This document shows, one piece after another, positions 11,228-53,684 of a stretch of 63,568 nucleotides of DNA. The stretch covers positions 1 to 63,568 of the IMG/VR virus record IMGVR_UViG_3300021963_006637. One strand, written 5' to 3'. The first letter of the stretch is position 1; every line of letters begins with the position of its first letter. The notes below the pieces were generated by a model. That model was given only the letters and a program-made list of their open reading frames with translations, was not told where the DNA came from and did no database searches. The stretch is from a virus (lineage: Duplodnaviria; Caudoviricetes). The position numbers were made by a program, and so were the translations under genes.

Positions 11228-11450
11228 TTGTCTAAATAATAATCCGAATATATGCTTACCAATTTATGCTCGTATGTATTCAGAGATTTAACATTGAAAG
11301 TAAGATTTTCGACTTTGAAAGAAGAATGTGATGATAGGTTCGATTGATAAATAAAGTCAGGTAAATTTGTTAGAATCTGCATATCATTTTTATTAATAGT
11401 TGATGCATCTATACTGATTATTACATCATTTTCTAACGCTATTAATATTT
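11218..11450 (-). pseudogene. Out-of-frame C-terminal continuation of the GT2 gene
   Basis: The +1 frame is open from the A-runs near 11448-11461 (…LENDVIISIDAS…TYEHKLVSIYSDYYLDKCI*) to a stop overlapping the next ATG; no upstream start codon; fills an otherwise empty ~200-bp gap. Confidence 0.6.
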
Positions 11451-12373: not shown

Positions 12374-12376
12374 ACT

Positions 12377-14747: not shown

Positions 14748-15430
14748 TATTGTGAAATTAAATCATTTACCTTATTGCAATCATTGAAAAATTCAATACT
14801 ACTTTTATATAAACTATATTGTTGCTGGTCGTAACCTGCTACAGATGCAGCATCTACATATTGAGAATCTCTAACAGCTTTACCATTATCAGGATGAATA
14901 TGTTCAAATGTTACATCATTAAAGTATTTTATAATACCGCATGAATTACCTAAATCTAACCAGAAATTATCCGCATACATATGAACAAGATTAGTAGGCA
15001 CCATAAATCCTAAAGCATCTACTATATTTGAGGTTAAACATACGGCAGTTGGTAATTTAGCACCTTGTAGCAAATCGTTACCATACGCAATTCCTACACC
15101 ATTATTTTCATTAAAAAATTCAATAAACTTACTTTCCCATTTTGTTTGAATTACATGATCATCTCCAAAAAATGCAATATACTTATATGAATCTTTATAC
15201 TTAATCGCAATTTGATTGAGGGTTGGTATCATTCGGATTCTAGGATTCACTTCGTAAATAACACCGTCTCTTATTGGGTATTGATGATTATCATCATCGT
15301 CTAATGCAATACATAAATCACTAAATCCTTCGGTATTAATTTTCCAATTTTCAATAAATCTGTCTACATTTGGATACCTAACACTATTACCGCTTCTAGA
15401 TGGAACAATTACTAATATTTCTTTTTTCAT
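14747..15430 (-). CDS. GT-A fold glycosyltransferase (GT2-like)
   Basis: VIVPSR, LDDDD, FGDDH, HMYADN, EHIHP. Confidence 0.75.
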   Translation of the reverse strand: MKKEILVIVPSRSGNSVRYPNVDRFIENWKINTEGFSDLCIALDDDDNHQYPIRDGVIYEVNPRIRMIPTLNQIAIKYKDSYKYIAFFGDDHVIQTKWESKFIEFFNENNGVGIAYGNDLLQGAKLPTAVCLTSNIVDALGFMVPTNLVHMYADNFWLDLGNSCGIIKYFNDVTFEHIHPDNGKAVRDSQYVDAASVAGYDQQQYSLYKSSIEFFNDCNKVNDLISQ

Positions 15431-15435
15431 AAAAT

Positions 15436-16059
15436 TTATATTTCGTTATAAAATTGATTTTGTTTTTCTTGTCTTTCTATTTGTTTATGATGATATAGGG
15501 AGTATTTTTCATCTGCAGGAAAGTTTGTAAACGTCGTATATCCACTTATTCTTTCATGCACCTTTCCATACCATACTACTTCATCAGTATTTTTATAAAT
15601 TCTGGTCTGATAATCAGGCCAATTAACCCATCCTTTTTCATCAACTCTCCATCCCCATTTTTGAATATGTGAATCGGTTAATCCTTCAACGGTGTTTACT
15701 CTCGGAACAAAAATAATATCAACTTCATTCATAGTTAATATCTGCTTTATCCTTTCCAATAGTATTTCAGATGGCTCTTCATCTGCATCAATTTGAAAAA
15801 TATAATCTCCCTCACAATGTGATTTCAAATTATTTTTAAATGATGCAAAATCTTTATTTAGAGGAAATGATATTACCTTAATTTGTTTTTGAATATCATT
15901 TATTACATTAAGATAATCAATTACTTCTTTTGTAGCAGATTCAGAATCATATTGAATAACAATTTGATCCTCGCTATCTACACGCACGAGTAAAAAGTTA
16001 ATTAATGAAGTAACCTCTTTTAGTTCATTACAAACGGTTATAGCGTAGCTAATTTTCAT
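15436..16059 (-). CDS. Glycosyltransferase family 2
   Basis: ISYAITVCNE, FQIDADE, PDYQTRIY, VHE. Confidence 0.85.
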   Translation of the reverse strand: MKISYAITVCNELKEVTSLINFLLVRVDSEDQIVIQYDSESATKEVIDYLNVINDIQKQIKVISFPLNKDFASFKNNLKSHCEGDYIFQIDADEEPSEILLERIKQILTMNEVDIIFVPRVNTVEGLTDSHIQKWGWRVDEKGWVNWPDYQTRIYKNTDEVVWYGKVHERISGYTTFTNFPADEKYSLYHHKQIERQEKQNQFYNEI

Positions 16060-16908
16060 TTATATAGTTTTTATATATTCTTTTAAAATATCTCTAGGAT
16101 ACCAATTCAATCTTTCAACATCATTATCTTTTCGAGTAGCAATTCTGTAATTACCTTTAACAGAATCAATATACTTTACTTTCAAATCAGGATATTTTTC
16201 TTTAAACATTTCATATAATTGGTCGATACTATATACAATATTATTTCCCATTTCCCATCCTGAATGATTTATTAAATCAGTTTTACTCAACTTTACTAAA
16301 CCATCAACAACATCATCTATGTAAGTAAATGCTCTATATGAAAGTCCACGCATTGTTATTTCTATCTCCTTACCCTCCCTTATATTCCGTCTCCACTTTC
16401 CTATCACAGCTGCCATATGAGAATCAACTAATTCACCTGGCCCATATACATTATATAATCTTACAATAGTAACATCCAACCCCATCCCATCTCTATAAAA
16501 ATTACATAACTCTTCACCAATTCTTTTTGAAGATGAATATGGAGATATGGAATGGTGAACCGATGATGAACTTACAAATACTATCTTTGATTTATTTCTT
16601 AAAGCATATTCCAATACTTGTTTAGTTCCATCTACATTAACTGAAAATGTTAAATTTCTATGTTGGTATGATAATTCCAATCTACTAAATGCTGCTAAAT
16701 GAAATATCCAATCATATTGTTTGTCAGGGATATTCTCCATTGCTCTAACATCCCCGCCTAAAAAATGCGCACCGATTTCTTTTGGATTTTTTGCTTCAAA
16801 CCCAATTGAAAGATTATCTATGATATCAACTTCATTACCTTCTTCTAATAATTTTTTAGAAAGTGCATATCCAATAAATCCACATCCACCGGTAACTAAT
16901 ATTTTCAT
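16060..16908 (-). CDS. NAD-dependent nucleotide-sugar epimerase/dehydratase
   Basis: VTGGCGFIG, HLAA, YSSSK, RLYNVYGP, FTYIDDVV. Confidence 0.9.
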   Translation of the reverse strand: MKILVTGGCGFIGYALSKKLLEEGNEVDIIDNLSIGFEAKNPKEIGAHFLGGDVRAMENIPDKQYDWIFHLAAFSRLELSYQHRNLTFSVNVDGTKQVLEYALRNKSKIVFVSSSSVHHSISPYSSSKRIGEELCNFYRDGMGLDVTIVRLYNVYGPGELVDSHMAAVIGKWRRNIREGKEIEITMRGLSYRAFTYIDDVVDGLVKLSKTDLINHSGWEMGNNIVYSIDQLYEMFKEKYPDLKVKYIDSVKGNYRIATRKDNDVERLNWYPRDILKEYIKTI

Positions 16909-17382
16909 TTAGTCTTCGTTGTGCGGTTTACTATTTGTATAATGCCACGCCGAACCGCTTGGATATCCATATGTAGTTGATGTTGATGGGTTATATGTAT
17001 TTAAAATACCCGTACTACCTGTACCAAATGATGCTATATTTGGATTGGCAATTGTAATAAATCCGGTAGTTCCAGGTGTTGTTGTTACTACATATCCAGG
17101 TGTTGATGTTGTTCCAAATGAACCACTACTACAAGTTATTTTGTATGGATTATATGGGTCTATATATGGTTTATCAAATGGATTTGGATAATGTGGTTCT
17201 TGCCACACTGGAGTTGTATTTGGAGATGTGTTTGGTGTTCCAAATGGAAATGATGGAGATGATTCATCAGTAACTTCTGCTAACTTATCTTTTAATGCAT
17301 CCCATTGCTTTGGAGTTGGTGCGTATTCGTGGCAGGCTTCTACAAAACCTCTTAACCATATAACGTATTCTTTTGATGTCAT
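16909..17382 (-). CDS. Hypothetical protein with helical N-terminus and Pro/Thr/Ser/Gly-rich tail
   Basis: WLRGFVE..PTPKQW..LKDKL followed by low-complexity TTSTPG/TTTPG sequence. Confidence 0.65.
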   Translation of the reverse strand: MTSKEYVIWLRGFVEACHEYAPTPKQWDALKDKLAEVTDESSPSFPFGTPNTSPNTTPVWQEPHYPNPFDKPYIDPYNPYKITCSSGSFGTTSTPGYVVTTTPGTTGFITIANPNIASFGTGSTGILNTYNPSTSTTYGYPSGSAWHYTNSKPHNED

Positions 17383-17397
17383 AACCTATTTATTTTT

Positions 17398-17931
17398 TTA
17401 ATCTTTTAAATTTTCTCTTCTCTCTTTTATCTTTTGAGTAGTATTATATCCTGGTAAAAATTTATCTTTTAAATATTCTTTGTCAATTTCAATTAATTCA
17501 ACACTTTTAATAGATGTCATTTTATATTCTCTATAATTCCCAGGATATACCAAAGGTCTTCTTTTGATAATATTAAATAAAGGTTTACCATCATTAGGAA
17601 ATTTCATTAATAATCGTCTGAATTCTTCAGCTGAATTTATAGATTCTTCAGTAACATTATCCATTGCCAAACGTATTGAATCGAAAAATTTTTCAGGATT
17701 TACATACTTCAATTTAATAGAAGGAAATAATACTTTTTTATCTACGAATCTACCAATCAAAAAAATATAAGTGGTATCCAATTGAGCCAAAACCTTTGTT
17801 TGGGGAGGGTCTACATATTTGTAAACAACTATTTTATAGAAATTACCGGGCTTCATCATACTATGCGGTATTGGTTTAAGACTGATAATAATATTGTCCC
17901 ACTTTTGAATATAGAGTTGTTTATTAATCAT
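17398..17931 (-). CDS. Hypothetical protein
   Basis: 177-aa ORF tightly packed between its neighbours. Confidence 0.6.
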   Translation of the reverse strand: MINKQLYIQKWDNIIISLKPIPHSMMKPGNFYKIVVYKYVDPPQTKVLAQLDTTYIFLIGRFVDKKVLFPSIKLKYVNPEKFFDSIRLAMDNVTEESINSAEEFRRLLMKFPNDGKPLFNIIKRRPLVYPGNYREYKMTSIKSVELIEIDKEYLKDKFLPGYNTTQKIKERRENLKD

Positions 17932-17934
17932 TTT

Positions 17935-19170
17935 TTAAAATTCAGGTAATACTAAATCAACATGCTTTGCAACCTTAACATATCTATCACATATTACTTT
18001 TAGAGATTCCGTCATTTTTGAATGAGAGAATTTAACTCTATTTTCTGCTCCTAATTTAGAAGATTCGGATAAATATTTACTATAATTATTGAAAACATCA
18101 TTTAATTTTAAAGCCGCATCTGAATAATTTACATAAAACCACTGGGATTCTCCTAATAAAAACTGATTAGCAGCCGATGGGTCTACATTTCTCAAATCTC
18201 CTTTTAATAAAACAGAACCATTTTCATTCAGAAAATCTACTTGCCCACTCCAACCACTAGCAATAACAGGTTTTCCCGTCATTGAAAATTCTAACAAAGG
18301 TCTACCAAATCCTTCCCCATGAGTAAATGATAAAGTGGCCTTTACTTTTGGATGATTGTATAATCTCCACATATCATCGGTTGTTAAATCACCATGTAAT
18401 AAGTAAATCGATACATCACTATTAACTTTAGATACTACATCATTTACTTTTCTCAACATCTCTTCTCTATCTCTTACTGAAAATCCAGCGGATGAAGTTT
18501 TTAAAATTAAAGCCGGTTTTTCACCTTTTACTCGACTAAAGGCAGAAAGAAATGTTTGAATCATTCCTCCTATATCTTTTCTATCATGATAAAGATTCCC
18601 TTGTAACCAATGACCTACAAATAGGAAACAAAAATCTTCTTTTATATTATCTAATTTTTCTAATCTATCCAATTCTTTATAATCAGTACCCTCAAATAAA
18701 ACTTCTACCGGCTTTGAAACCCTATGCTCAGCGACAATCTGCTGAGTTTCTTTACTCTTTTCAGTCCATGTAGTTCCCGTTATACCTGATTTTGAATGAT
18801 TAGATGTAGTTATTACTAAATCCATTCTATTACATCCATCTACCCAATCTTTAGGTATAATCGTAGTTTCTATACCAGCGGTTATTCCAATATTAAATTT
18901 CCCAACTTTTTGAAATTCATTAGGAACTGTCATTTGAACATAGACATCTGGTTGCTTAGATATCTGTGTTACAATATTTTCAATTACCCATTTATCAAAT
19001 TCATTCGTAGGGTCTAACTGATCCATTGGAGTAGCTCCCCATTTTGTAGATACAATTTTTATATCATAATAATCTAAATCTCTAAATGATTTTAATAAAT
19101 CTCTTGCGTGATCTCCATAACCGCTTCTCGTAGCAATTGGAGCTTGATATAATAAAAATGGTTTACTCAT
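17935..19170 (-). CDS. Glycosyltransferase family 4 (GT-B)
   Basis: TRSGYG, RKD, GEGFGRPLLEF..TGKPVI. Confidence 0.85.
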   Translation of the reverse strand: MSKPFLLYQAPIATRSGYGDHARDLLKSFRDLDYYDIKIVSTKWGATPMDQLDPTNEFDKWVIENIVTQISKQPDVYVQMTVPNEFQKVGKFNIGITAGIETTIIPKDWVDGCNRMDLVITTSNHSKSGITGTTWTEKSKETQQIVAEHRVSKPVEVLFEGTDYKELDRLEKLDNIKEDFCFLFVGHWLQGNLYHDRKDIGGMIQTFLSAFSRVKGEKPALILKTSSAGFSVRDREEMLRKVNDVVSKVNSDVSIYLLHGDLTTDDMWRLYNHPKVKATLSFTHGEGFGRPLLEFSMTGKPVIASGWSGQVDFLNENGSVLLKGDLRNVDPSAANQFLLGESQWFYVNYSDAALKLNDVFNNYSKYLSESSKLGAENRVKFSHSKMTESLKVICDRYVKVAKHVDLVLPEF

Positions 19171-19172
19171 AA

Positions 19173-19505
19173 TTAATTCTTTACAAAAACTCCTCCAACA
19201 GTTTTACCTGTTCTATCTTTAATTTCATTCCACGCTGCCTCCAAACATTCCGCTGGTTCTAATCCTAATTGTTTAGATAAGATAATAAGTGTTACAAATG
19301 AATCACCTATACCGTCTTTAACTTCTTCATCTTTAGATTTGAGTAATGCTCCGGCAGTTTCACCTACTTCTTCTAATACTTTCAATAATTGCTTATGTGC
19401 ATTTTCTTTCTTTAAGATATTTTTATCAGCTGCCCAACCTACTACATTTTCAATCAATTTGTCAAATGATGCAGTTGTTTCAAATAATTCTAATTGTTTT
19501 CCCAT
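19173..19505 (-). CDS. MazG-like nucleotide pyrophosphohydrolase
   Basis: KVLEEVGE...DGIGD...CLE.AWNEIKDRTG. Confidence 0.85.
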   Translation of the reverse strand: MGKQLELFETTASFDKLIENVVGWAADKNILKKENAHKQLLKVLEEVGETAGALLKSKDEEVKDGIGDSFVTLIILSKQLGLEPAECLEAAWNEIKDRTGKTVGGVFVKN

Positions 19506-19513
19506 TTTGTAAC

Positions 19514-20902
19514 TTATTTTATTTTATATAATTCAAATCTTTCTTTAGGTTTCCAGTTTTCAAATGCCCTTTCCATTCCCTCAACCATAGTATCTGCCAT
19601 TCTTTGCGAATGAAATCCATTTTCTGATAGGAAAAATTCTCTACCTTTTAATCCCATTTCTTTTCTTTTTTCTTTAGGGATATCATACCAATATTTCATA
19701 GCATCCGCTAACTCATATACATCAACTTTATCGTCAATGATATAAGGAGTTGGAACTGAACCATTCATATTTTGAGCTCTAGGCCATAATGGTTTTACCC
19801 ATTCACCATGTTCCACTTTACCTTCCCATTTTCTCCAATCGTGCAATGAACCGATTTCAACATAATCATCCGCAGTTAATAACTTACCATCTTTTTTAAA
19901 CCCACATTGGTCTTGTAATCCACCTGTTACTAAAACAATAGAAGGTAGCCCAGCCATTATCGCCTCACAAGTTGTCAAACCAAATCCTTCGTTTCCAGCG
20001 ATATTAACTGAAATATCACAAAGGTTTACCAATTGGTTTATTTGTTCGGTGGATAGTCGGTTTGTTGAAAATTTAATTTCAGTATCAGGAGCTATTCTGC
20101 TAGCTACCGCAACCAAATCAGTACCGTTTTCATCAACGGGCTGAGTATGCATTAGCAATAATACTTTCTTTTTCTTTTCTTCTGGTAATGAATCAACAAA
20201 CATTTTATATGCCCAAATAACATCAGATGGTTGTTTACGTCTGATATTACGATTTGACCAATATATTACAAATTCATAATCGTTTCCGGCAAATAATTTT
20301 TGCTTTAATTCTTTATTTTCTTCTTCAAGAGGTTTATAAAGTTTAGATACACCATGTGGTACATAACTCACTTGCCAATCTTCCAATGGTTTCCAAGTTT
20401 TTCCATTTTCTAAAGCACCAGTTCTTTTAACGATTCCATAAGTTTGTTTAGAAATACAACCTAACCAATCACAACTTTCATAGTAATCTCTATTGTAATG
20501 AGGGTCTGGCAAATCATCCCAAATATGGTAAAAGAAAATTGGTGTAGTTTGTCTGATTTCATGTTCAATATCATACAACCAAATCCAATATCTCGGGTCG
20601 GTAAAGTGTAAGATAGCATCGATTTTATGCCTATTTAAAAAATCTCTTATTAAATCTGCATTACCATACCCACTATTTGGGTAGAGTATTACACTTGCAT
20701 CTTCTACTCCACTAAATTTTCTAACATCTTCAGATACATCAATTATTTTTCCCACATCAGGATGTTGCACAGCCGCTGCAACCTGTATCCAATTATATTT
20801 GTGAACTGAACCCAATACTATTTCTTTTGACATAGTAGCTATACCACTATGCATTCTTAAATCATCTGATAAAAGGAGAATTGTTTTTTTGTTGTTACTC
20901 AT
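19514..20902 (-). CDS. Glycosyltransferase family 4 (GT-B)
   Basis: SDDLRMHSG, VPHG, NRNIRRKQ, NEGFGLTTCEA..G.P. Confidence 0.85.
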   Translation of the reverse strand: MSNNKKTILLLSDDLRMHSGIATMSKEIVLGSVHKYNWIQVAAAVQHPDVGKIIDVSEDVRKFSGVEDASVILYPNSGYGNADLIRDFLNRHKIDAILHFTDPRYWIWLYDIEHEIRQTTPIFFYHIWDDLPDPHYNRDYYESCDWLGCISKQTYGIVKRTGALENGKTWKPLEDWQVSYVPHGVSKLYKPLEEENKELKQKLFAGNDYEFVIYWSNRNIRRKQPSDVIWAYKMFVDSLPEEKKKKVLLLMHTQPVDENGTDLVAVASRIAPDTEIKFSTNRLSTEQINQLVNLCDISVNIAGNEGFGLTTCEAIMAGLPSIVLVTGGLQDQCGFKKDGKLLTADDYVEIGSLHDWRKWEGKVEHGEWVKPLWPRAQNMNGSVPTPYIIDDKVDVYELADAMKYWYDIPKEKRKEMGLKGREFFLSENGFHSQRMADTMVEGMERAFENWKPKERFELYKIK

Positions 20903-20905
20903 AAA

Positions 20906-21097
20906 TTAAAACTGTGAACCTGAAATTTGTAATTCTGCGAATGAATCTATTTTGTCTTTAAAATTTGGGTCTTCTACATAAAGAGTCAAAGAACGATTTA
21001 CTAATTTTTGTAAACTCATTTTATCATCTAATGTAACTCTTTTGAATTGCGAATAAAGATTACTTAGAATCTTTACGCTTGTTAATTTAACATCCAT
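20906..21097 (-). CDS. Small putative DNA-binding protein (ribbon-helix-helix-like)
   Basis: Start re-called to MDVKLTSVKI (ATG at 21095-21097), downstream of the ATATTTATA motif at 21117-21125; beta-alpha-alpha pattern. Confidence 0.55.
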   Translation of the reverse strand: MDVKLTSVKILSNLYSQFKRVTLDDKMSLQKLVNRSLTLYVEDPNFKDKIDSFAELQISGSQF

Positions 21098-21152
21098 ATC
21101 TTTTTCAATTTGTATATATAAATATATATATTTATTTTTATGAAAAAGATAA

Positions 21153-21491
21153 TTATTTCCAAAAAATTTGTATCGCAACTATAACAATACAAAGAAAAAT
21201 ACTAATTAAAGTTTTAAGAGTGATTGGCTCTTTTAGATAAAACCAAGTCATAAACGAAAATACTAAGATTGATAATGAGAATCCTATTATTCTATTAGGC
21301 CACGTTAAACCATTGAATAGTTCAATCATTACTTTCGTACTCCATATAACTGAATACCCGAATGGTATTCCAACTAATACCATTAAAAAAGGATTTCTAT
21401 CAATCCATTTTGAAATTAAATGACCTTGCAATTGATAGAAAGAAACAACCTGTGATAGTATTAAAAAAAATATAGCTAATATAACTCTCAT
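21153..21491 (-). CDS. Small integral membrane protein (4 TM, DMT/EamA-like)
   Basis: Four hydrophobic segments; LKEPIT.KT pattern; start re-called at the TAATG overlap. Confidence 0.55.
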   Translation of the reverse strand: MRVILAIFFLILSQVVSFYQLQGHLISKWIDRNPFLMVLVGIPFGYSVIWSTKVMIELFNGLTWPNRIIGFSLSILVFSFMTWFYLKEPITLKTLISIFLCIVIVAIQIFWK

Positions 21492-22351
21492 TATTTCCAA
21501 ATTGAGCAAATCTTTCTTTCCTTAAACTCACACCAATCACATTGCTTCCCTTTATTTGTAGGGTATTCTATTTCCCTATATTTCCCATCTACATCAAACA
21601 CAGTATCTACGAATTCCATAAACCCTTTCCAAGCTTTGTTTATAGATGGTTTACCGCTCGCTGGAATATGTTTTGAAATACGAGGAATTGGATAATCCGC
21701 ATCCTCTTTAATCTTTCTCTTAAGAATATGAAATTCAACATTTACTTTATCTTCATCAATCTTATATTTTTCCGCATAGAATTTCTTATATAAAAGAATT
21801 TGTGCGTTTTTAATAGGGTCTGATTTCTGATATTTACTCCAACCAGCAGTTGACGTTTTAAAGTCAATGATTGTTATTTTTTTAGTTGCAACTTCTCTGA
21901 TAATAATATCGACAAATCCAATAAAATGCACATTCTCTTTAATCTGCATATTCAATGGTAATTCAATTGCAACTAATTCATATCCTTTCTTAGAGAAAAA
22001 TAATACTAACTTACTTTTAAAGTATTGCAATATCTTTCTACCATCTCCAAAGAATTCTTCTAACTCTTCTTTAGTGCAAGGAAATTCATTTTCTCCCAAT
22101 TTCTCCTTTTCCTTATTAAAGTTTTCAACTAATCTATCCTTTAACAGCATATCTAAATCCATTGCCATTGCAGAGGATTTAGTAGCATTATACATTACAT
22201 CTAAAAACTTTTGTAATGTTTCATGCATCGCAGTTCCGAAAATTAAATGAATATTCGCATTTGAAATTGATAACCCATCAATATAAGATAACTTATATTG
22301 TTGAGGGCAAGAATTCCACATTGAATATTGAGAGAAAGATACTCTTGCCAT
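21491..22351 (-). CDS. PD-(D/E)xK nuclease, RecB/Cas4-like with Cys cluster
   Basis: SFSQ...CP, GTAMHE, GFVDII, IIDFKT, Q..LY, CDWCEF...C. Confidence 0.85.
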   Translation of the reverse strand: MARVSFSQYSMWNSCPQQYKLSYIDGLSISNANIHLIFGTAMHETLQKFLDVMYNATKSSAMAMDLDMLLKDRLVENFNKEKEKLGENEFPCTKEELEEFFGDGRKILQYFKSKLVLFFSKKGYELVAIELPLNMQIKENVHFIGFVDIIIREVATKKITIIDFKTSTAGWSKYQKSDPIKNAQILLYKKFYAEKYKIDEDKVNVEFHILKRKIKEDADYPIPRISKHIPASGKPSINKAWKGFMEFVDTVFDVDGKYREIEYPTNKGKQCDWCEFKERKICSIWK

Positions 22352-22815
22352 TATTTCTTTTTGGTTTTTGGTTTAGAAGATTTTTTACCTTTTTCTTTTT
22401 CTACTTCTCCATATTTTGATTTAAGATATTCAAAATATTCACTACCTTCTTTTATATTACTAAGAATAGTGTAGTAATCTATTGCAGTAGATTTTGAGCA
22501 ACTATATTCTATCTGAATTAACTCTACCAACTTTTCATTTGCAATTTCTTCACCCTTACCCTTTATATAACGAAGATAGTATTTTCCTTTTGGAATAACC
22601 CCTATCATAAGAAGGTAGTATAATTTCGGCTCCATTGTTTGTGTCAATGGTTGAAATTGTGCAATTGTTTCAACAAAATCGAAATTCATAGAAAGGAATC
22701 TATGAATCATGTAATTACTCCAAGTTTTCAAATCCTCCTCTGATAATTTATCAAAGTAATTCGGGTCTTGATCTTTTGTTATAGCATTAAGATGGTCAAA
22801 AAGTGTTTTAGCCAT
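22351..22815 (-). CDS. Clamp loader small subunit-like (T4 gp62-like)
   Basis: LFDHLNAI...NYMIHRFLSM...Y..YIK pattern typical of T4-like gp62 homologs; near the gp44-like gene. Confidence 0.6.
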   Translation of the reverse strand: MAKTLFDHLNAITKDQDPNYFDKLSEEDLKTWSNYMIHRFLSMNFDFVETIAQFQPLTQTMEPKLYYLLMIGVIPKGKYYLRYIKGKGEEIANEKLVELIQIEYSCSKSTAIDYYTILSNIKEGSEYFEYLKSKYGEVEKEKGKKSSKPKTKKK

Positions 22816-23387
22816 TATCTAGCAATATATTTGTTATAGAATTCTAATTTAAACTGAGAATACCCAATTCTACAATTAGCCTGCCAATCATCCATCCCAC
22901 CATCATCACTTACCCATTTATAAGAAACGATAGGTATTTTGAATTCTTTACACACTCGAGTAATTGAATATAACTCCATCTCAAATATACTACATTTATT
23001 TAACAATTCCAACTTTTTAGGGGAGAAATTCTTAACCTTTTCCTTAGTTATAAAGGTTTCCGATGTAAAGCAGCTAACTCCTTCATTTTCAATCTCTAAG
23101 TAATCACCATCTACATCAAATGGAGTGATAGAATATGGGACTAACGGCTCCGCATCCATATCTCCATTGTAAACATCTTTAACTTTTAATAACATACCTT
23201 TATCCATTGTGAAACTCCCACAGCTTCCAAAATTACAAACTAAATCGGGTTTATGTTCTAATATAGCCAATGCGGTTTTATATCCTGCGTTTATTTTACC
23301 AACACCGGTATGTATAATTGGATAATCAAATAAATTATCATGCCCATCCGATTCTTCTTTTAATGCACAGACAAATAAAACTTTCAT
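22815..23387 (-). CDS. mtnN: 5'-methylthioadenosine/S-adenosylhomocysteine nucleosidase-like (PNP/UDP family)
   Basis: ALKEE, TGVGKINA, NFGSCG, FEMELY, KWVSD. Confidence 0.8.
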   Translation of the reverse strand: MKVLFVCALKEESDGHDNLFDYPIIHTGVGKINAGYKTALAILEHKPDLVCNFGSCGSFTMDKGMLLKVKDVYNGDMDAEPLVPYSITPFDVDGDYLEIENEGVSCFTSETFITKEKVKNFSPKKLELLNKCSIFEMELYSITRVCKEFKIPIVSYKWVSDDGGMDDWQANCRIGYSQFKLEFYNKYIAR

Positions 23388-23388
23388 A

Positions 23389-23706
23389 TTATAATTCCAA
23401 TGTTAATGATGAGTTGGGTTCAACAGGTGGAGGAGTTGGAACTTCTTCTTTATTTTGAGCTTTTGAAGATTTTCTAATTTCAGCAGGAATTAATTCATCA
23501 ACTGGTTTCCCGCAGTTACCACACATTAATATATCTACTGGTATAACTGCATCTTTCGGAGTTCCCGTAACTAATTTTGAAAACTTTTTAATTACAACTG
23601 CGCTTATAAAATATTCTCCTCCGCAATGTGAGCAAGTAAAATCTTGAGCTTGTGACCAATCTAGTCGTGGTTGAGGAGGTTGTTGGTTTCCTAAAATTTG
23701 TGCCAT
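23389..23706 (-). CDS. Zinc-ribbon protein
   Basis: CSHCG...CGNCG. Confidence 0.65.
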   Translation of the reverse strand: MAQILGNQQPPQPRLDWSQAQDFTCSHCGGEYFISAVVIKKFSKLVTGTPKDAVIPVDILMCGNCGKPVDELIPAEIRKSSKAQNKEEVPTPPPVEPNSSLTLEL

Positions 23707-23716
23707 AGTTTTTAAT

Positions 23717-24628
23717 TTAAATTATTGTTTTATTAATATATCTTTTTAAAATTTCAAATATCTTCTCATGCCCATTTTCATTTGGGTGCGATGGATCAGG
23801 TGTTCCATACGGTCTATCATGCATTAAAAATTCCTTCCAAATAGTTGTATCTTTTCCGTTATAAATTGGCTCAATTAATACATCGGTAACTTTATTTTTT
23901 TCTGCTATCTCATCTATAAAGAAAAAAGTTTCGTTTTTAAATTTTCCATAAAAAGAATTTTTTATATCACTATCTTCACTTAAAAATTTAATCATAGGTT
24001 TCGCAAAGAAGTTTGAATCTAAAACTTGTGTATCTTTGTAATCTAATTTGTATCCCATAATCGGAACTGGTATATCAAAGAATAGGTGTTCTATTTCATT
24101 TTTTACAAACCAATTATGCACTAAATAAATCGCGTAGCTATTTTGTTTAAAAAGCTCTCTTAGATAATCTACCCATTTATTATGGTCAAATTCTTTTTTA
24201 TACTTCCAATATTTGCCATTATAATAATTTTCATACTCTGTCCAATACCCAACCCACTCGTCAATTGGTAAAATATCTTCTTTGATACCATACTCTTCTC
24301 TAAAGCTATCAACTCTGAAACTATTAGAATTTACTTCCTTATAAAATCTATTTCCATACCAAGGGTTTGGAATCATCTGCTTATCGATTTGTCTTTCAAA
24401 ATAGGTTGTCTGAAACAAAACCAAAGCATTTTTATAAAACTCTATTGGCTTATTTAATATAACATTACTACCTACTATGTTACCTGCACCAGGAATTGCT
24501 AAACTTATAAAAGGAACTCCTAACCAATCGGCTATTCGTTGCCCAAAAATTTTATCCTTATCGGCATTTAATCCATATCCAATAGAACATCCCCAAAGTA
24601 TTACTCTATCTATTTTTCCCATATCCAT
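23717..24628 (-). CDS. SGNH/GDSL-hydrolase-like protein
   Basis: LWGCSIGYG, LAIPGAGN, C-terminal SHPNENGH. Confidence 0.65.
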   Translation of the reverse strand: MDMGKIDRVILWGCSIGYGLNADKDKIFGQRIADWLGVPFISLAIPGAGNIVGSNVILNKPIEFYKNALVLFQTTYFERQIDKQMIPNPWYGNRFYKEVNSNSFRVDSFREEYGIKEDILPIDEWVGYWTEYENYYNGKYWKYKKEFDHNKWVDYLRELFKQNSYAIYLVHNWFVKNEIEHLFFDIPVPIMGYKLDYKDTQVLDSNFFAKPMIKFLSEDSDIKNSFYGKFKNETFFFIDEIAEKNKVTDVLIEPIYNGKDTTIWKEFLMHDRPYGTPDPSHPNENGHEKIFEILKRYINKTII

Positions 24629-25839
24629 ATTGGTTCTCCAAATGCTCTGTTTTTACCTTCTTCGGCTTGTTTTTTAGATTCTTCAGTATAATATTCACTC
24701 ACAGCAGTTCCAGCTCCTCCGCTGTTAGGTCTTTTTGTCATTTCCATACCAATACACCCTCTATATTTTAATCCCTTAGAATGAAGAAAATCATTCATAG
24801 AATTCGTTATATCTACATACCCCCCATCTGGTGCAGAAAATACATCTGATATATTAACTGCTAATACTCCTCCCTTCTTAAGAGTTGGTATCATTTTATC
24901 CAACGCTTTATGTAAAAAGTTTGTATTCCAATCATCTATTTGCTTATATCTCAAATAAGATTGTGTATCATGATCTGAATATCTTTCGGTATTAAAGTAA
25001 GGAGGTGATGTAAAAATTGTATCAAAATAATCAGTATATTCTGAATAATCAACATCCTCCGCTGGTTGTGGTATAAATGTTGCCTTCTTTGGTTCTTCAA
25101 AAAATGTTTGATACTTTTTATAGTATTCTTCTTGCAATAAATAATTCGGATGATTGTTTAAATTAGGGTCAATACCAACATAGTGTTTAGCATTATCAGT
25201 TGCATAAAATCCAGCAAATCTATCACCCCACCCCGCTGAAAAATCTAATATAGTTTCCGATTTGAAATAATCATATAACGCTTTAGCAACATTTGGTTTG
25301 AATTGAGAAGCAACATACTTTCTTAAATTCATAGCCATCTTAAGAGTATTGATATTAACATCGGTAAGAACTTTATCCAATGTAAAAAATGCTCTTACAA
25401 TGGTCTTAATTCCTTCGACTGTCTGCCACGTTCTCCAACCGGATGGGCCTCTTACCCAATCAACTTTATATCTATTCTCTACATGAAATTTATTCGATGC
25501 TTTATTACCAACGGTATACTTTTTAAAATACATAAACTTACCATCAAATGTAAGTGGGTATTTACTTTCTCTACCATTACGAGGAAACCATTCACCTTCA
25601 ATTAGGATGTCAGGCCACCAAGTTCCTTTTAGTTTTTGATAATCTTCCAATATCTCTTCATTAGTGTAAACAGGAATTGGTAATGGATATGTATGGCAAA
25701 CTTCTGAAAGAGTTTCAATAATATCTTCTTTATCGAAGGTCTTTATAATATATGCCCATTCTTCCTCATCAATAGAAAGATATGGTTTCATATTATAAAA
25801 CTTACTGAAATATTCTTTTATAGTTTTTTCCATATCCAA
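24610..25839 (-). CDS. Amino-methyltransferase-fold DNA modification enzyme (SPPY type), paralog B
   Basis: Motif I LDFSAGWGDR, YVGIDP, motif IV FTSPPYFN.ERYS; ATG start probably at 25833. Confidence 0.8.
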   Translation of the reverse strand: MDMEKTIKEYFSKFYNMKPYLSIDEEEWAYIIKTFDKEDIIETLSEVCHTYPLPIPVYTNEEILEDYQKLKGTWWPDILIEGEWFPRNGRESKYPLTFDGKFMYFKKYTVGNKASNKFHVENRYKVDWVRGPSGWRTWQTVEGIKTIVRAFFTLDKVLTDVNINTLKMAMNLRKYVASQFKPNVAKALYDYFKSETILDFSAGWGDRFAGFYATDNAKHYVGIDPNLNNHPNYLLQEEYYKKYQTFFEEPKKATFIPQPAEDVDYSEYTDYFDTIFTSPPYFNTERYSDHDTQSYLRYKQIDDWNTNFLHKALDKMIPTLKKGGVLAVNISDVFSAPDGGYVDITNSMNDFLHSKGLKYRGCIGMEMTKRPNSGGAGTAVSEYYTEESKKQAEEGKNRAFGEPIWIWEK

Positions 25840-27047
25840 ATTGGTTCACAAAATCTTTTACCTTCAGCTTCTTTCGCTTTCTCTAATGCCTCTTCGGTAT
25901 ATCTACCCTCATCACCTTCTATGATTGCACCTGCTCCCGCTGAACCTGGTCTCTTTGCCATCTCCATGCCCAAACAACCTTCGTATTCTGCGCCTAATGT
26001 TTTGATATAATCATTCATTGGGTTTGTAATCTCCACATATCCCTTTTCTCTATCATTTGATTTAGCATATACATCGGCAATGTTCACTGCCAAATAACCA
26101 CCTTTGCGTATCGTTGGCCATAGATTGTGAATTACTCTATGTAAGAATTGCTCATTCCATGCATCAATTGATTTATATCTCACCCAACTTTGAGTGTCAT
26201 CATAAGAATATCTTTCAACATTAAAATACGGGGGGGAGGTGAATACAATATCGAAATGATTTTCGAATTGAGTGAAATCAAAATCTTCAGCAGGAGAACA
26301 ATGAAACTCTGCTTTCTTTTCAACCTCAAAAAATGTTCTATGTTTTTCATACCACTCTGCCTGCTGATTATAGATTGGATGATTTTCTTTTCTCGGGTCA
26401 ATGCCCACATAATGTTTTCCATATTCACTCGCATAAAATCCTGCTACTCTATCACCCCATCCAGCTGAAAAATCTAATACATTTTCAACCTTAAGATAAT
26501 CATATAGTGCTTTTGCTACATTTGGTTTGAATTGTGCACAAATGTATTTTCTCAACCCTAAACAAGTTCTCAAAGAGTTTCTATCAATCTCATCAAACTT
26601 AAGTGTATATAATCCACCCATAAGTGAAACCATAAACTCTCTTGTTTCCCAAGTTCTTTTAGGGCCAGGAGAAACCGTCCCGTCTACACTCCATCTATTA
26701 GCTTGTTGAAAGAAATTAGATGCTTCATTGCCCACATTATTTCTACTAAAGTATTGTTGTTTACCTCTAAATGTTAAAGGGTAATTACTTTCTGATGCTT
26801 TACGAGGAAACCATTCTCCTTCTTTTAGAATATCTGCCCACCAAGTTCCTTTTAGTTTTTTATAAGCATCCAATGCTTCTGCTTCAGTTATATCTGCGTA
26901 AGGGATTGGGTATTCCATAAGAATATCAGCCAATGTTTCCTTAACATCTTCTAATGCAAATGTTTGTTTTATATAACTCCATTCTTCTTTTCCAATATGG
27001 AGATAAGGGGTCATCCCTTTAAATTTGTCGAAATAATCTAAATACAT
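25818..27047 (-). CDS. Amino-methyltransferase-fold DNA modification enzyme (SPPY type), paralog A
   Basis: LDFSAGWGDR, YVGIDP, FTSPPYFNVERYS; colinear with paralog B over its full length. Confidence 0.8.
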   Translation of the reverse strand: MYLDYFDKFKGMTPYLHIGKEEWSYIKQTFALEDVKETLADILMEYPIPYADITEAEALDAYKKLKGTWWADILKEGEWFPRKASESNYPLTFRGKQQYFSRNNVGNEASNFFQQANRWSVDGTVSPGPKRTWETREFMVSLMGGLYTLKFDEIDRNSLRTCLGLRKYICAQFKPNVAKALYDYLKVENVLDFSAGWGDRVAGFYASEYGKHYVGIDPRKENHPIYNQQAEWYEKHRTFFEVEKKAEFHCSPAEDFDFTQFENHFDIVFTSPPYFNVERYSYDDTQSWVRYKSIDAWNEQFLHRVIHNLWPTIRKGGYLAVNIADVYAKSNDREKGYVEITNPMNDYIKTLGAEYEGCLGMEMAKRPGSAGAGAIIEGDEGRYTEEALEKAKEAEGKRFCEPIWIWKKL

Positions 27048-27600
27048 TTCTTATAAAATTATATTTTTTATTATCAGTAATTGTTTCAATATTTTTATCA
27101 GCGGGTAATCTTAATTTATAGATGGATCCTGAAATATATCCCTCTTTTTTACCATGCCACATTTGAGAATTCTCATCAACCAATTCAAAGCCATTTCTTT
27201 CATAAAATTTTCTAGCAGTTTCATTGGCAGTTCTTACTGATAAAATTATATTTTCACAATGATTTGTTTTACAATATTCAACAAACTCATTGAATACTTT
27301 TTGAGCTGAACCATTTCTATACTTAGAAGCAATTTGATGAATAATCATATCACCCTTTTTCTTTCTGGCAAAGGTTTTTCTAGCTATTTTAGAATTGCTT
27401 TTACTTTTTTCAAACGTAATTACAACTCCATCCTGTAATACAACTCCTCCATTTGGTTTACTAAAGTATTTTTTTAATTTAAATCCTTGCCCACTTAAAT
27501 GTGGAAATACCTTTGGATATAAATCAATTATCTCCATTGCTTCTTTGATAGCAGATTCCATTTCTTCGCCATCGGTTTTTATATTGAGTATCCTAATCAT
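27019..27600 (-). CDS. GNAT-family acetyltransferase
   Basis: HQIAS..RNGSA (motif A-like), LSVR..NE.ARKFYERNGF (motif B). Confidence 0.8.
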   Translation of the reverse strand: MIRILNIKTDGEEMESAIKEAMEIIDLYPKVFPHLSGQGFKLKKYFSKPNGGVVLQDGVVITFEKSKSNSKIARKTFARKKKGDMIIHQIASKYRNGSAQKVFNEFVEYCKTNHCENIILSVRTANETARKFYERNGFELVDENSQMWHGKKEGYISGSIYKLRLPADKNIETITDNKKYNFIRNVFRLFRQI

Positions 27601-29050
27601 TTAGTGAGAAAAATTTATCAAATAATATATCATTCTTATACGAATATAAGAATTTTAATTTAGATTTCAAAATATCTTTTCTAGCTTCCATCATATCACC
27701 GGTTCTGCATCCTTTAGCGAAGTAAACTTTAGGTCTATATAATAACTCATCTGAAATTTCTCCTTTAAATGCTGCCCTTAATAAAGGTTTCATATGCCCG
27801 TCTTCTTTTTGATATAGAGGTGGAATATTGAGTGTATATTCTACGAATGGTCTCCAACTATATGGTGTGCGAACTTCAACTGTTCCACCCCACATAATAG
27901 ATTGATTTGTTGTTAAAAAATTTGTTTTATGCACATCTTCTACTAACTTTCTTCGTGCAATATCATAATCCTCAGGTCTCCAATGAAATGCTTGTATGTG
28001 ACCATAACTTCCCCAAATTTCATCGGATAGGTCGCCACTAAACACAACTTTAAACCCCAATTCATTTATCTTTCTAGAAAGTGCTATTTGAGCAATTGCA
28101 GAACCTACATTTTGCCATCTACTCTGCTCAATTACATAAAGTGTTTCTTCAATAGCATCCTCTACATCTTTTTCAGTTAATATAATTTCGTGCAACTTAA
28201 CACCAAATTCTTTAGCTGCTATTCTTGCGTATTTAATATCATCATCTTTTGTATTACCATCTCCCATTGATACTACGAATGCTTCAATATCAGGTTTAAT
28301 TTTAGAAAGAATATATGTGGTAATAACAGAATCAATTCCTCCACTAAGAATAGTGCAAATAGGAACATCTGATATCATCTTAACTCTTACTGCTTCTTCT
28401 AACATCACTCTTATATTCCTAACGATAGTTTCTCTATCATCATTAATAATTTCAGATGGAAGTTTGTAATAAGTTACTGTTTGATATTCCAGCGTTTTAT
28501 AATCGTATTGAAGATATGTACCTGGATAAATTGCCTTTACTTGCTTTTCATAAATGTCTGAAAGTGGCAATCCTTTCTTTTCAGAACAAAATACCAACTT
28601 ACCATCATTGTCGATTGCATACCACAATGGAAGCTCACCAACATAATCTCTAACAACTAATATTTTATTTATTCGGGTATCAACAATAGCAAATGAAAAC
28701 ATACCATCTAATTCTTTGAATACATCGACTCCAAATTGTTCGTATCCATTAAGAATTATTTCGGTATCAGATTTAGTCCGGAAAGGAATTGTGATTTTTT
28801 CTCTTAATTCTTTTGTGTATGTACTATCCCACAATTCGCCATTATAAACCAAACAAATAGTTTTATCACTATTCCACATTGGTTGATTGGCAGAATCAGA
28901 TAAATCTTGTATAGATAACCTATTGTGCCCAATTAATACATTATCTATTTCAATGAAAGAAGAATTATTTCTACCCCTGTGTATAGTTTTATCTAATCCT
29001 TTTTTTATTGTAATATTTGAATACCCGTTACCTCCAATTATTCCACACAT
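27593..29050 (-). CDS. asnB: Asparagine synthetase B-like glutamine amidotransferase / ATP-dependent amide ligase
   Basis: N-terminal MCGI (Ntn Cys), HRG, HNRLSIQD, YNGEL, SDTE, PP-loop LSGGIDS, SGDLSDE, EVRTPY, RPK. Confidence 0.85.
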   Translation of the reverse strand: MCGIIGGNGYSNITIKKGLDKTIHRGRNNSSFIEIDNVLIGHNRLSIQDLSDSANQPMWNSDKTICLVYNGELWDSTYTKELREKITIPFRTKSDTEIILNGYEQFGVDVFKELDGMFSFAIVDTRINKILVVRDYVGELPLWYAIDNDGKLVFCSEKKGLPLSDIYEKQVKAIYPGTYLQYDYKTLEYQTVTYYKLPSEIINDDRETIVRNIRVMLEEAVRVKMISDVPICTILSGGIDSVITTYILSKIKPDIEAFVVSMGDGNTKDDDIKYARIAAKEFGVKLHEIILTEKDVEDAIEETLYVIEQSRWQNVGSAIAQIALSRKINELGFKVVFSGDLSDEIWGSYGHIQAFHWRPEDYDIARRKLVEDVHKTNFLTTNQSIMWGGTVEVRTPYSWRPFVEYTLNIPPLYQKEDGHMKPLLRAAFKGEISDELLYRPKVYFAKGCRTGDMMEARKDILKSKLKFLYSYKNDILFDKFFSLND

Positions 29051-29328
29051 TATATTAATGAGGCTTCTTTTCGTTTAAAATATTTTAGTATAATAATTTT
29101 CCCAATTGAGCCGGATAGAAGAAATAAAAAAATTGTAATCCAATCTCCTTTCAAAAAACTATCTACTGAATATGCAGTAGATGCAATCCAGAATGATGTC
29201 TGAATATTAAAAAGTATTACGGATTTAGTTATATTATTTTCAACTACCCATTTAATTTCTAATACTTTAAAAACTGCTAATGCAAGTTGAGAAAGAACAA
29301 CAAACCCATATACTAAAAGTGGATTCAT
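29050..29328 (-). CDS. Small membrane protein (3 TM)
   Basis: Hydrophobic 92-aa ORF with TAATG overlaps at both ends. Confidence 0.6.
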   Translation of the reverse strand: MNPLLVYGFVVLSQLALAVFKVLEIKWVVENNITKSVILFNIQTSFWIASTAYSVDSFLKGDWITIFLFLLSGSIGKIIILKYFKRKEASLI

Positions 29329-30275
29329 TATTTATTAATAAGTTGTAATACTGAAATAATTGTAGCCATAAATGTAATTTCCTTATCTACAACTAATGCA
29401 TCTTTGGAAGTTCCTTCGGCTAAAGCAATAATAACATTCGCTACATTTCCTTTTGCATAATCATCTATCTTATCATATAGAAAAGAATAAACATCAGTAA
29501 AATCAGAGATTCTATTATCAGCTACCAACTGTCTAATTGTCATAAACTTATTTCTAAGTTCATCCTTTGATTTCAATATTTCAACTAACTTCAATCTAAA
29601 ATCAGAATCTACAATCGTAGCACTCTCTGTCTTCAATACACTATCAACACACGCCAATTGAGTTGTGTTTATTATCTTTCTAATATCCGGATAATAACCA
29701 TCTACAATAGGAACTAAATCAGCAGGATTAAATTGAATATCTTCCTTTTTAAGGATTGATGCAATTTGAACTGCTACATCTTTTTTAGTAGGAGGAACTA
29801 TTTGAAATGATTGACATCTACTTTGAATTGGAAGAATAATTTTCTCAATGTAATTACAAGTTAAAATGAATCGACAATGTTTACTAAATGTTTCCATTAA
29901 GTTTCTCAACAATGCCTGTGCATTTGGTGTCATATAATCAAACTCATCTAAGATAATAACCTTATATGGTTTAAATCCTACACCACTAGCAAAATTCTTT
30001 ACTTTATTTCTTACGGTATCAACATTGTTTTCATCGGATGCATTGATAATCATTACATCACATTCAATATTCTTAACTATAAGTTTAGCTAAAGTTGTTT
30101 TACCAGTGCCTGCTTTACCAAAAAAAAGTAAGTGAGGTATATCACCGCTTTCGATATACCCCTTTACTTTTGCTTTGAGATTTTCATTACCTACATATTC
30201 ATCTAACTTTGTAGGTCTATATTTCTCAACCCAAAGTGAGTGAACTTGTTCTTCTTGTTGTTCAAAAAAACTCAT
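29328..30275 (-). CDS. Clamp loader AAA+ subunit (T4 gp44 / RFC small subunit-like)
   Basis: WVEKYRP, Walker A GKAGTGKTT, NASDE, Walker B ILDEFD, SRC motif. Confidence 0.95.
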   Translation of the reverse strand: MSFFEQQEEQVHSLWVEKYRPTKLDEYVGNENLKAKVKGYIESGDIPHLLFFGKAGTGKTTLAKLIVKNIECDVMIINASDENNVDTVRNKVKNFASGVGFKPYKVIILDEFDYMTPNAQALLRNLMETFSKHCRFILTCNYIEKIILPIQSRCQSFQIVPPTKKDVAVQIASILKKEDIQFNPADLVPIVDGYYPDIRKIINTTQLACVDSVLKTESATIVDSDFRLKLVEILKSKDELRNKFMTIRQLVADNRISDFTDVYSFLYDKIDDYAKGNVANVIIALAEGTSKDALVVDKEITFMATIISVLQLINK

Positions 30276-52400: not shown

Positions 52401-52404
52401 ATTA

Positions 52405-53652: not shown

Positions 53653-53684
53653 CAAATATACGAAAATATTTTATAAATTCCAAT
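53653..53684 (-). promoter_or_regulatory. Bacteroidota-type promoter (-33/-7)
   Basis: ATTG-N20-TATATTTG, ending 6 nt before the PolA-like ATG. Confidence 0.65.

Follow-up and report, generated by a model that had tools for sequence, protein, structure and literature searches.

A conserved asnB-GNAT-SPPY gene cassette in T4-like aquatic phages and its candidate role in DNA hypermodification

Conservation of the cassette and its alternatives

In a fragment of an uncultured T4-like aquatic phage, we identified a small gene cassette encoding an AsnB-like glutamine-dependent amidotransferase, a GNAT acetyltransferase-like protein and one or two paralogous S-adenosylmethionine (SAM)-dependent transferases with an SPPY motif, here called MT-A and MT-B. 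The fragment is the complete IMG/VR virus record IMGVR_UViG_3300021963_006637 (63,568 bases, estimated completeness 34%), hereafter the window. An initial annotation had read seven genes at this place as a single candidate DNA-hypermodification operon. The coherent unit is narrower and consists of asnB-like, GNAT and MT-A in this order, sometimes followed by MT-B: MT-A is the core gene, MT-B is optional, a Zn-ribbon gene belongs to the clamp-loader module, and the genes for a 303-amino-acid (aa) protein and a nucleosidase occur with either of two alternative cassettes. We tentatively propose that this unit is a tailoring cassette for DNA hypermodification that would act post-replicatively on the bases of the phage DNA, a function that we consider possible rather than probable. 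The locus suggests, without proving, that these phages decorate their DNA more elaborately than with a methyl group, by a chemistry predicted from sequence.

Should the cassette act on DNA, it would represent the first route to hypermodification that begins with an enzyme resembling amino-methyltransferases and not with a handle at C5 (hydroxymethyl or carboxymethyl). Members of the SPPY family are very numerous and almost wholly unannotated; they are encoded within the replication module of T4-like phages that are widespread in water, and what they do bears on restriction evasion and on the behaviour of phage DNA in sequencing. If the enzymes only methylate, the locus would still be of use, as a warning that tight conservation of gene order in a phage replication module can be misleading.

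All genes of the cluster lie on the minus strand, and the open reading frame (ORF) positions and order given by the initial annotation were matched exactly. The asnB-like gene (27593-29050, 485 aa) was assigned by Pfam, NCBIfam and alignment to 1ct9, and the GNAT gene (27019-27600, 193 aa) by Pfam and PDB sequence search. MT-A (25818-27047, 409 aa) was recognized as an SPPY methylase-like protein from its motifs, PF01555 and its fold, and MT-B (24610-25839, 409 aa) as its paralogue from 55% identity and the same motifs. Adjoining ORFs of the cluster overlap by 1-30 nt or are spaced by 1-10 nt, with an overlap of 8 nt between the GNAT and asnB-like genes, from which we infer that they are probably translationally coupled. 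Family matches bore out both flanks, a gp44-like clamp-loader ATPase on one side (29328-30275, minus strand, Pfam) and a gp62-like clamp-loader subunit on the other (22351-22815, minus strand, Phage_clamp_A at 31.2 bits).

To follow the cassette in related phages, loci were seeded with MT-A (80 kept of 241) and independently with the asnB-like protein (35 loci, and 80 kept of 201 in a second search), and 73 asnB-type loci were used for downstream counts. Many loci are near-duplicates from different samples and nearly all come from one phage group, so the counts are not independent events and the synteny is partly inherited. The data showed that a GNAT gene directly follows asnB in 61/61 loci with at least 700 nt of downstream sequence, and that an MT-family gene lies downstream of asnB in 48/51 loci with at least 3 kb, standing right after GNAT in 40 of these 48 and 2.2-4.2 kb further in the rest. 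Among the exceptions were L252, in which MT-A lies upstream, and L276, which has only a weak MT-family match; in L113, with 2.2 kb downstream, an HNH-containing gene follows GNAT before the contig ends.

The cassette occurs at two genomic positions. The order in the lineage of the window is gp44, a small membrane-like ORF (tm92), asnB, GNAT, MT-A and MT-B, then the 303-aa gene, the Zn-ribbon gene, the nucleosidase gene and gp62. In a second lineage, with 58% polymerase identity, a reductase and a thioredoxin-like gene are followed by asnB, GNAT, MT-A and MT-B and then by gp45, a 523-aa MT-C-like gene, the polymerase, gp44, the Zn-ribbon gene and gp62. Both lineages hold the cassette among replication and nucleotide-metabolism genes, and only some of the relatives have MT-B. 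A very divergent example was found in a Flavobacteriaceae metagenome-assembled genome (MAG), on a 56.6-kb contig with a GC content of ~0.37: a 14-kb island with a GC content of 0.27-0.30 (L177, G007:C14, ~16000-30000) carries an asnB-like gene (35% identity), a GNAT gene (42%), a 244-aa ORF and an SPPY-family gene (~30% identity, profile E 2e-37). A search of this MAG gave no homologue of the phage polymerase, and the island may be a hint to the host range of the phage group or a decayed mobile element. The two genomic positions, the exchange of cassettes in one slot described below and the divergent island indicate a linkage beyond inherited synteny. The co-occurrence of asnB, GNAT and SPPY genes that the initial annotation had anticipated was therefore recovered in many relatives.

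The slot upstream of MT-A has more than one occupant. Among the 80 MT-A loci it holds asnB and GNAT in 29, a 255-257-aa pyridoxal phosphate (PLP) fold-type-II protein (PF00291, 1e-9) in eight, a set of MazG-like, thymidylate-synthase-like, second asnB-like and no-family genes in three, a MazG-like gene only in one and a thioredoxin-like gene only in one. In 35 of the 80 loci MT-A is preceded by gp45 with no accessory gene, and three have too little sequence. The asnB and PLP genes occur together in 0/80 MT-A loci, and in whole records the PLP family was found only in the single asnB-less record of the five searched. Both variants occupy the same slot in both lineages, and the swap of asnB-GNAT for PLP offers a natural experiment. 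The PLP gene was seen in the asnB-GNAT slot at 7221-7988 of L006 and also in L014, L016, L017, L024, L042 and L075. The third cassette, in L037 and L043, combines a MazG-like protein, a 232-aa weakly thymidylate-synthase-like protein and the second asnB-like protein (35%) with proteins of 278 and ~540 aa without a family. The second asnB-like lineage (35-41% identity) also occurs 4 kb upstream of MT-A. An apparent fusion of the MT and PLP domains (P0246) was rejected, its PALP score of 21 bits being below the cut-off and BLASTP giving no significant likeness to the PLP protein of the sister phages.

Enzyme families of the cassette

MT-A consists of a conserved 170-residue N-terminal domain of no assigned function and a class I SAM-dependent fold. 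Both MT-A and MT-B carry LDFSAGWGDR (motif I) ahead of TSPPYF (motif IV). An alignment of 70 family members showed D192, G196, G198 and R200 of motif I, D217, D266, S271-P272-P273, F275, E278 and Y280 to be invariant, among others, with Y274 nearly so. The family shares SPPY as motif IV and DxxxGxG as motif I with the beta-class methyltransferases of PF01555 (N6_N4_Mtase), and it is set apart from them by the order of motif I before motif IV, the additional N-terminal domain and scores around or below the gathering cut-off. Against the cut-off of 26.7 bits MT-A scored 25.4 (below), MT-B 29.2 (above) and MT-C, a third paralogue in the window, 22.5 (below), while 65 of the 70 members matched the family at E up to 0.01. 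The tandem SPPY transferases of the initial annotation were thus found as two paralogues with TSPPYF whose family match is weak and, for MT-A, below the cut-off. Its further suggestion that these enzymes transfer something other than methyl found no sign in them, the SAM motifs and SPPY being canonical.

Relatives of MT-A numbered 241 in viral contigs, 2959 in a clustered protein collection and 4598 clusters at 50% identity, and they are named hypothetical, 'SAM-dependent methyltransferase' or, for some of those from JGI, 'RsmD'. MT-A gave no significant match to PDB chains, either as a single sequence or as a profile. Its AlphaFold model is confident (predicted local distance difference test score, pLDDT, 92.9), and comparison of this predicted structure by Foldseek and VIA-align returned a generic class I methyltransferase fold with no discriminating neighbour. 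The polyamine aminopropyltransferase BpsA (Z 13.4) was considered as a clue to the chemistry of MT-A and set aside as one of many ties. Longer members of the SPPY family are fused to helix-turn-helix (HTH) or carry LAGLIDADG endonuclease domains, associations that fit a DNA-directed enzyme and, as domain matches, do not prove one. Separately, we noted LAGLIDADG or HNH domains in or beside SPPY-family and cassette genes in P0132, P0150, P0200, L113 (6829-8187) and L279 (from ~2889, upstream of asnB).

The third paralogue, MT-C (36866-37924, minus strand, 352 aa, 34% identity to MT-A), carries TSPPYF as well and adjoins a canonical beta-class N6/N4 methylase (37946-38671, minus strand, family match 2e-46). 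Motif IV of this canonical methylase is DWPF, and four methylase-like genes lie within 14 kb.

The asnB-like protein matched Asn_synthase (3e-46), GATase_7 (4e-30) and GATase_6 (4e-30) in Pfam and E. coli AsnB (1ct9) at E 4e-47, and it scored below the cut-off of the AsnB-specific model PRK09431 (281 vs 499). It starts with MCGIIGG and so keeps the N-terminal Cys nucleophile together with a class II glutaminase domain, and its PP-loop LSGGIDS aligns to SGGLDS of 1ct9. In human asparagine synthetase, as far as the available text of the study describes it (PMC6748925), Glu-364, Asp-367, Asp-400 and Arg-403 hold the aspartyl moiety in the synthetase site, both Asp-400 and Arg-403 are conserved there, and the E364A, E364Q and D367A variants are inactive. 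We mapped these positions through the 1ct9 alignment, with a human-to-E. coli offset of 16 that is our own mapping, and found Asp, Asp, Asn and Thr in the phage protein (E364>D, D400>N, R403>T). The four-residue site is not fully conserved, and the enzyme is a non-standard AsnB-like protein in which Asp-400 and Arg-403, both conserved in the site, are replaced. Thr at position 403 together with loss of the next basic residue was seen only in the clade of the window protein among the 26 displayed rows of an alignment of 85 members. The change at Glu-364 (E348>D in E. coli numbering) was dropped as an argument for altered function, Asp being present there in many bacterial family members.

The best cultured-phage match of the asnB-like protein was gp124 of Streptomyces phage TurkishDelight (31% identity over 456 residues). 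Upstream of gp124, gp123 bears the GSPPC, ENV and QxRxR motifs of C5 methylases and is itself preceded by two ParB-like genes; downstream lies gp125 (260 aa), annotated as a methyltransferase, which is a candidate CmoA-like protein when read by eye without a family search. A FastTree phylogeny of 85 sequences grouped gp124 with five SPPY-linked phage proteins, that of the window included (Shimodaira-Hasegawa-like support 87). We take this grouping as a hint only, because the branches are long and the set holds no verified AsnB.

The GNAT protein scored above the Pfam cut-offs of two models, Acetyltransf_10 (27.0 vs 23.6 bits) and Acetyltransf_1 (25.3 vs 20.7 bits). A PDB sequence search placed the N-alpha-acetyltransferases RimI and Naa50 as its closest solved relatives, with RNGSA aligned to RKGVA of RimI, which we take to be the acetyl-CoA motif. 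The protein also weakly matched PseH (3e-4). No entry named Mom was present among the 28 PDB sequences matching the protein at E up to 10, in a PDB copy unchecked for a Mom chain, or among its hits in eight phage records, and no similarity to PaMx11 was detectable in the phage collection.

Proposed function and competing explanations

The observations are best fitted by a modular DNA-modification locus in which a core SPPY enzyme is combined with one of several cassettes for amino-acid-like groups, namely amidation plus acetylation, a PLP enzyme, or a thymidylate-synthase-like protein with the second asnB-like protein. We propose that the SPPY-family enzyme would use SAM to act on exocyclic amines in the DNA of the phage and that, where the accessory genes are present, a DNA-attached group with a carboxylate and an amine would be finished in two steps. 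The AsnB-like protein would convert the carboxylate into an amide through ATP-dependent adenylation and subsequent attack by glutamine-derived ammonia, and the RimI-like GNAT would acetylate the amine of the DNA-borne group. In sister phages the PLP enzyme in the same slot would lead to a different end product, and the nucleosidase would remove S-adenosylhomocysteine (SAH) or methylthioadenosine (MTA). From the families and the neighbourhood we infer DNA as the substrate, the SPPY enzyme as the source of the handle and the identity of that handle.

The proposal that enzymes of these tailoring classes act on DNA-borne groups has precedents in CmoY (PMC12783734), in PaMx11 gp48 and PLP enzymes (PMC8989533) and in Mom (PMC13219725), as set out in the available text of these sources. 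In Synechococcus phage S-B43, according to that text, CmoA makes carboxy-SAM (Cx-SAM), the C5-methylase homologue CmoX places a carboxymethyl group on cytosine, and the asparagine-synthetase homologue CmoY ligates glycine to the 5-carboxymethylcytosine of DNA, giving a glycine amide (PMC12783734). Like that system, the window has a SAM-type transferase gene near an AsnB-homologous ligase, which in S-B43 acts via an adenylate on a DNA-borne carboxylate. The second-largest ligase cluster of that study has a glutamine-amidase domain, as does our asnB-like protein, and could not be assayed there (PMC12783734); the best cultured match of our protein, TurkishDelight gp124, sits in a gene cluster of this kind. 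The differences are that CmoX carries SPPC and the Cx-SAM arginine whereas the window transferases carry SPPY, and that in these phages the asnB cassette always includes GNAT. The available text of the same study reports that its authors found no CmoA-associated candidates for N6- or N4-carboxymethyltransferases (PMC12783734).

The thymidine hypermodifications of phages M6, ViI and PaMx11 offer a second comparison. There, as the accessible text describes, the GNAT PaMx11 gp48 puts an acetyl group on a DNA-borne amine, PLP enzymes trim amino acids carried by the DNA, and such genes form alternative cassettes in sister phages (PMC8989533). GNAT and PLP enzymes are likewise alternative cassettes of sister phages here; unlike those phages, the five records have no thymidylate-synthase or hydroxymethylase homologue, with no search aimed at the kinase or the amino-acid:DNA transferase. 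Mom of phage Mu is, in the text available, a GNAT that moves glycine from Gly-tRNA to the N6 of adenine (PMC13219725). It resembles the cassette in that a GNAT-fold enzyme works on phage DNA to leave an amide-bearing adduct on an exocyclic amine, and differs in that Mom works alone and that the GNAT of the window aligns best with the acetyl-CoA-dependent RimI and Naa50. A full-text search of the open-access literature found no description of the asnB-GNAT-SPPY combination, which does not prove its absence.

Several observations weigh against the proposed tailoring of DNA. The handle is its weak point: neither amidation nor acetylation is possible on a methyl group, and consequently the SPPY enzyme transfers a larger group, another enzyme supplies the handle, or there is no pathway. 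CmoA (TIGR00740) is absent from the window (34% complete) and from four relatives, two of them 100% complete, and both a C5 methylase (PF00145) and a thymidylate-synthase homologue (PF00303) are absent from all five records searched for each, two of which are 100% complete, which leaves no enzyme known to supply a carboxyl handle. By their gene content these phages therefore appear to fall outside both the Cmo and the 5-hydroxymethyldeoxyuridine-based thymidine systems. The SAM-binding motifs and SPPY are all of the ordinary amino-methyltransferase type, and among solved folds transfer RNA and ribosomal RNA enzymes of the N2-methylguanosine (m2G) and N6-methyladenosine (m6A) types tie with O-methyltransferases for MT-A at Z ~15, the amino-methyltransferases in this tie being TrmN, Trm11, METTL5, RsmC and PrmC. 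The asnB-like protein passes the NCBIfam asparagine-synthase cut-off (TIGR01536, 276 bits vs 267.1), and its tree has long branches and no verified AsnB. MT-A is a core gene: in the 35 loci with no accessory gene its direct neighbours are gp45 and gp44, and the MT-A of L006, 96% identical to that of the window, adjoins the PLP gene instead of asnB and GNAT; being a core gene and nearly unchanged beside PLP, MT-A should make a product independent of asnB and GNAT. Presence of the cassette is not followed by the 303-aa gene or the nucleosidase gene. The linked loci stem almost entirely from a single phage group with many near-duplicates, and in the sole case outside that group, the Flavobacteriaceae island, asnB is split over three frames, which may reflect decay or a long-read assembly error.

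Much of this would be expected if MT-A, MT-B and MT-C were plain N6-adenine or N4-cytosine methylases directed against restriction, with the nucleosidase clearing SAH and the accessory genes being unrelated arrivals in a hyperplastic slot, where auxiliary metabolic genes such as an asparagine synthetase with an acetyltransferase, or a PLP enzyme, would settle. We regard this explanation as a serious one, although on balance it is somewhat improbable. Besides the occurrence of MT-A alone and its near identity under either cassette, it accords with PF01555 as the best family of the SPPY proteins, with the canonical methylase that the phage also encodes (2e-46), and with the name asparagine synthase that sources give to the asnB-like protein. 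Other phages, such as S-SCSM1, have asparagine-synthase genes outside DNA contexts, and the speD gene of the window, which lies far from the cluster, is of a kind known as an auxiliary metabolic gene. What plain methylation leaves without a reason is the inseparability of asnB and GNAT in all 61 loci, for which free asparagine synthesis gives none; in addition, asnB-GNAT stays beside an SPPY gene through rearrangement and in an island of only 35-42% identity, and other residues stand in place of Asp-400 and Arg-403 in the asparagine-synthetase site.

We next consider a target other than DNA. An RNA, protein or small molecule might be modified for host takeover, for example by m2G- or m6A-type methylation of transfer or ribosomal RNA or by tailoring of an amino-acid-like metabolite. 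The solved folds closest to MT-A do include TrmN, Trm11, METTL5, RsmC, RsmD and PrmC, JGI labels some family members RsmD, and RimI and Naa50, the closest solved relatives of the GNAT, are protein N-terminal acetyltransferases. These fold matches, however, are ties in a generic fold, DNA methylases are the best-matching family by sequence (65/70), the SPPY family includes HTH fusions and homing endonucleases, and the genes lie inside a replication module; a non-DNA target is accordingly quite unlikely in our judgement.

Least likely of all is a role in glycan chemistry, in which the asnB-like, GNAT and SGNH-like proteins, together with the sugar genes at 11426-20902, would serve to amidate a uronic acid and to add N- or O-acetyl groups to sugars, decorating the virion, the DNA or the surface of the host: those genes, of the GT2, GT4 and GT1 glycosyltransferase, epimerase/dehydratase (two) and FkbM methyltransferase families, begin only 1.4 kb beyond gp62, the asparagine-synthase gene of S-SCSM1 lies within a glycosyltransferase cluster and the GNAT weakly matches PseH (3e-4), but the cassette of the second lineage keeps its tie to MT-A in 17-kb loci in which no glycosyltransferase gene was found, and S-SCSM1 gp130 is the most distant row of the asnB-like tree. 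AsnB-like amidotransferases do occur in O-antigen clusters.

Within the proposed tailoring of DNA, one specific version deserves mention although we think it unlikely. The SPPY proteins might be no methyltransferases and instead move an amino-acid-like group, for example the 3-amino-3-carboxypropyl group of SAM, to adenine N6 or cytosine N4 with release of MTA; the AsnB-like protein and GNAT would then neutralise both charges, and the PLP enzyme of sister phages would make a different adduct. In diphthamide biosynthesis, a 3-amino-3-carboxypropyl group derived from SAM is N-modified, its carboxylate is amidated by an ATP-dependent PP-loop enzyme and MTA is released, the target being a protein histidine and the transfer being carried out by a radical-SAM enzyme. 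No radical-SAM enzyme was seen here, and the likeness is an analogy of chemistry only. If true, this version would mean diphthamide-like chemistry on DNA across an abundant aquatic phage group.

Neighbouring genes and source phage

Between gp44 and the asnB-like gene lies tm92, a 92-aa membrane-like ORF (29050-29328, minus strand). On the other side of the cassette, the 303-aa lineage-specific protein (23717-24628, minus strand) had been called SGNH in the initial annotation, and this holds only as a likeness of motifs: there was no family match in Pfam, PHROG or NCBIfam, and AlphaFold modelled it with low confidence (pLDDT 49.9). The family is narrow (44 proteins), and G13, S15, G47, N50 and H281 are invariant in 16 sequences, Ser15 standing in a GCS triplet and a DxxH motif being present. 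A 20%-identical relative has GDS instead of GCS and matches DUF6071, and a profile search against PDB gave a non-significant E of 0.066 to 6v8i (titled tail-associated lysin) with both motif blocks aligned.

The Zn-ribbon protein (23389-23706, minus strand, 105 aa) is homologous (36% identity, 5e-11) to a small ORF between the two clamp-loader genes of Microcystis phage Mel-JY01, by which homology it was assigned, and most relatives have a homologue between their clamp-loader genes too. It is therefore no part of an inserted operon and, judged from this position, could be an extra clamp-loader-associated factor.

The next gene (22815-23387, minus strand, 190 aa) encodes a nucleoside phosphorylase/nucleosidase-superfamily protein, with a PNP_UDP_1 score of 39.9 bits against a cut-off of 25.1. 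It is closest to MTA/SAH nucleosidases and has EME and SD motifs, which we take to be catalytic. The assignment as an MTA/SAH nucleosidase was thus sustained at the level of the superfamily and not of the enzyme, every NCBIfam MTA/SAH-nucleosidase cut-off being missed (best 57.5 vs 129). Relatives retain the gene with either cassette, two complete relatives have nucleosidase-like genes at other positions, and the 303-aa gene stands beside either the asnB-GNAT or the PLP cassette in the lineage of the window; because both genes are present with either cassette, they are not tied to asnB-GNAT.

Genes elsewhere in the window had been cited in support of the operon. The speD gene is present (56-454), 22 kb from the cluster, and a MazG-like match (19173-19505) is weak (22 bits, below the cut-off) and lies 3.3 kb past the last cluster gene; no Nmad family was found among the 50 of 72 window ORFs scanned with Pfam. 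Neither speD nor the MazG-like ORF shows a tie to the cassette. The run of glycan genes (11426-20902, minus strand) comprises GT2, an epimerase/dehydratase, GT4, the FkbM methyltransferase, another GT2, a second epimerase, two GT1-like genes and the weak MazG-like ORF, and starts 3.7 kb past MT-B. Similar glycan clusters were seen in Mel-JY01 and S-SCSM1.

The window has a GC content of ~31%, with 71 of 72 non-overlapping ORFs on the minus strand. Its T4-type replication genes include a family B polymerase, a clamp loader with gp44-like and gp62-like subunits, a candidate sliding clamp in the position of gp45, a DnaB-like helicase, UvsX/RecA, gp32 and ribonucleotide reductase, and a T4 baseplate protein is also encoded. 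The closest cultured relative is Mel-JY01, the best cultured match of the polymerase (50.4% identity), on which a literature search found no paper. The best cultured-phage identities of MT-A and the asnB-like protein are only 36% and 31%, and megablast against the phage collection found no near-identical DNA for the window. The stretch was found in 21 sequencing runs, all as assembled contigs; 95-97% of its sampled words are present in four runs labelled estuary or marine metagenome, and about half in lake and freshwater runs, and one of these runs may be the sample of origin. In a scan for promoters and terminators, the counts did not exceed those expected from shuffled sequence.

Mel-JY01 (L119) has a SAM synthase gene at 17590-18792, two genes past the clamp loader, a hint that the phage group has a high demand for SAM. 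The window also encodes two 2-oxoglutarate-Fe(II) oxygenase-family proteins and one PhyH-family dioxygenase, at 4940-5632, 51645-52439 and 53671-54453 on the minus strand.

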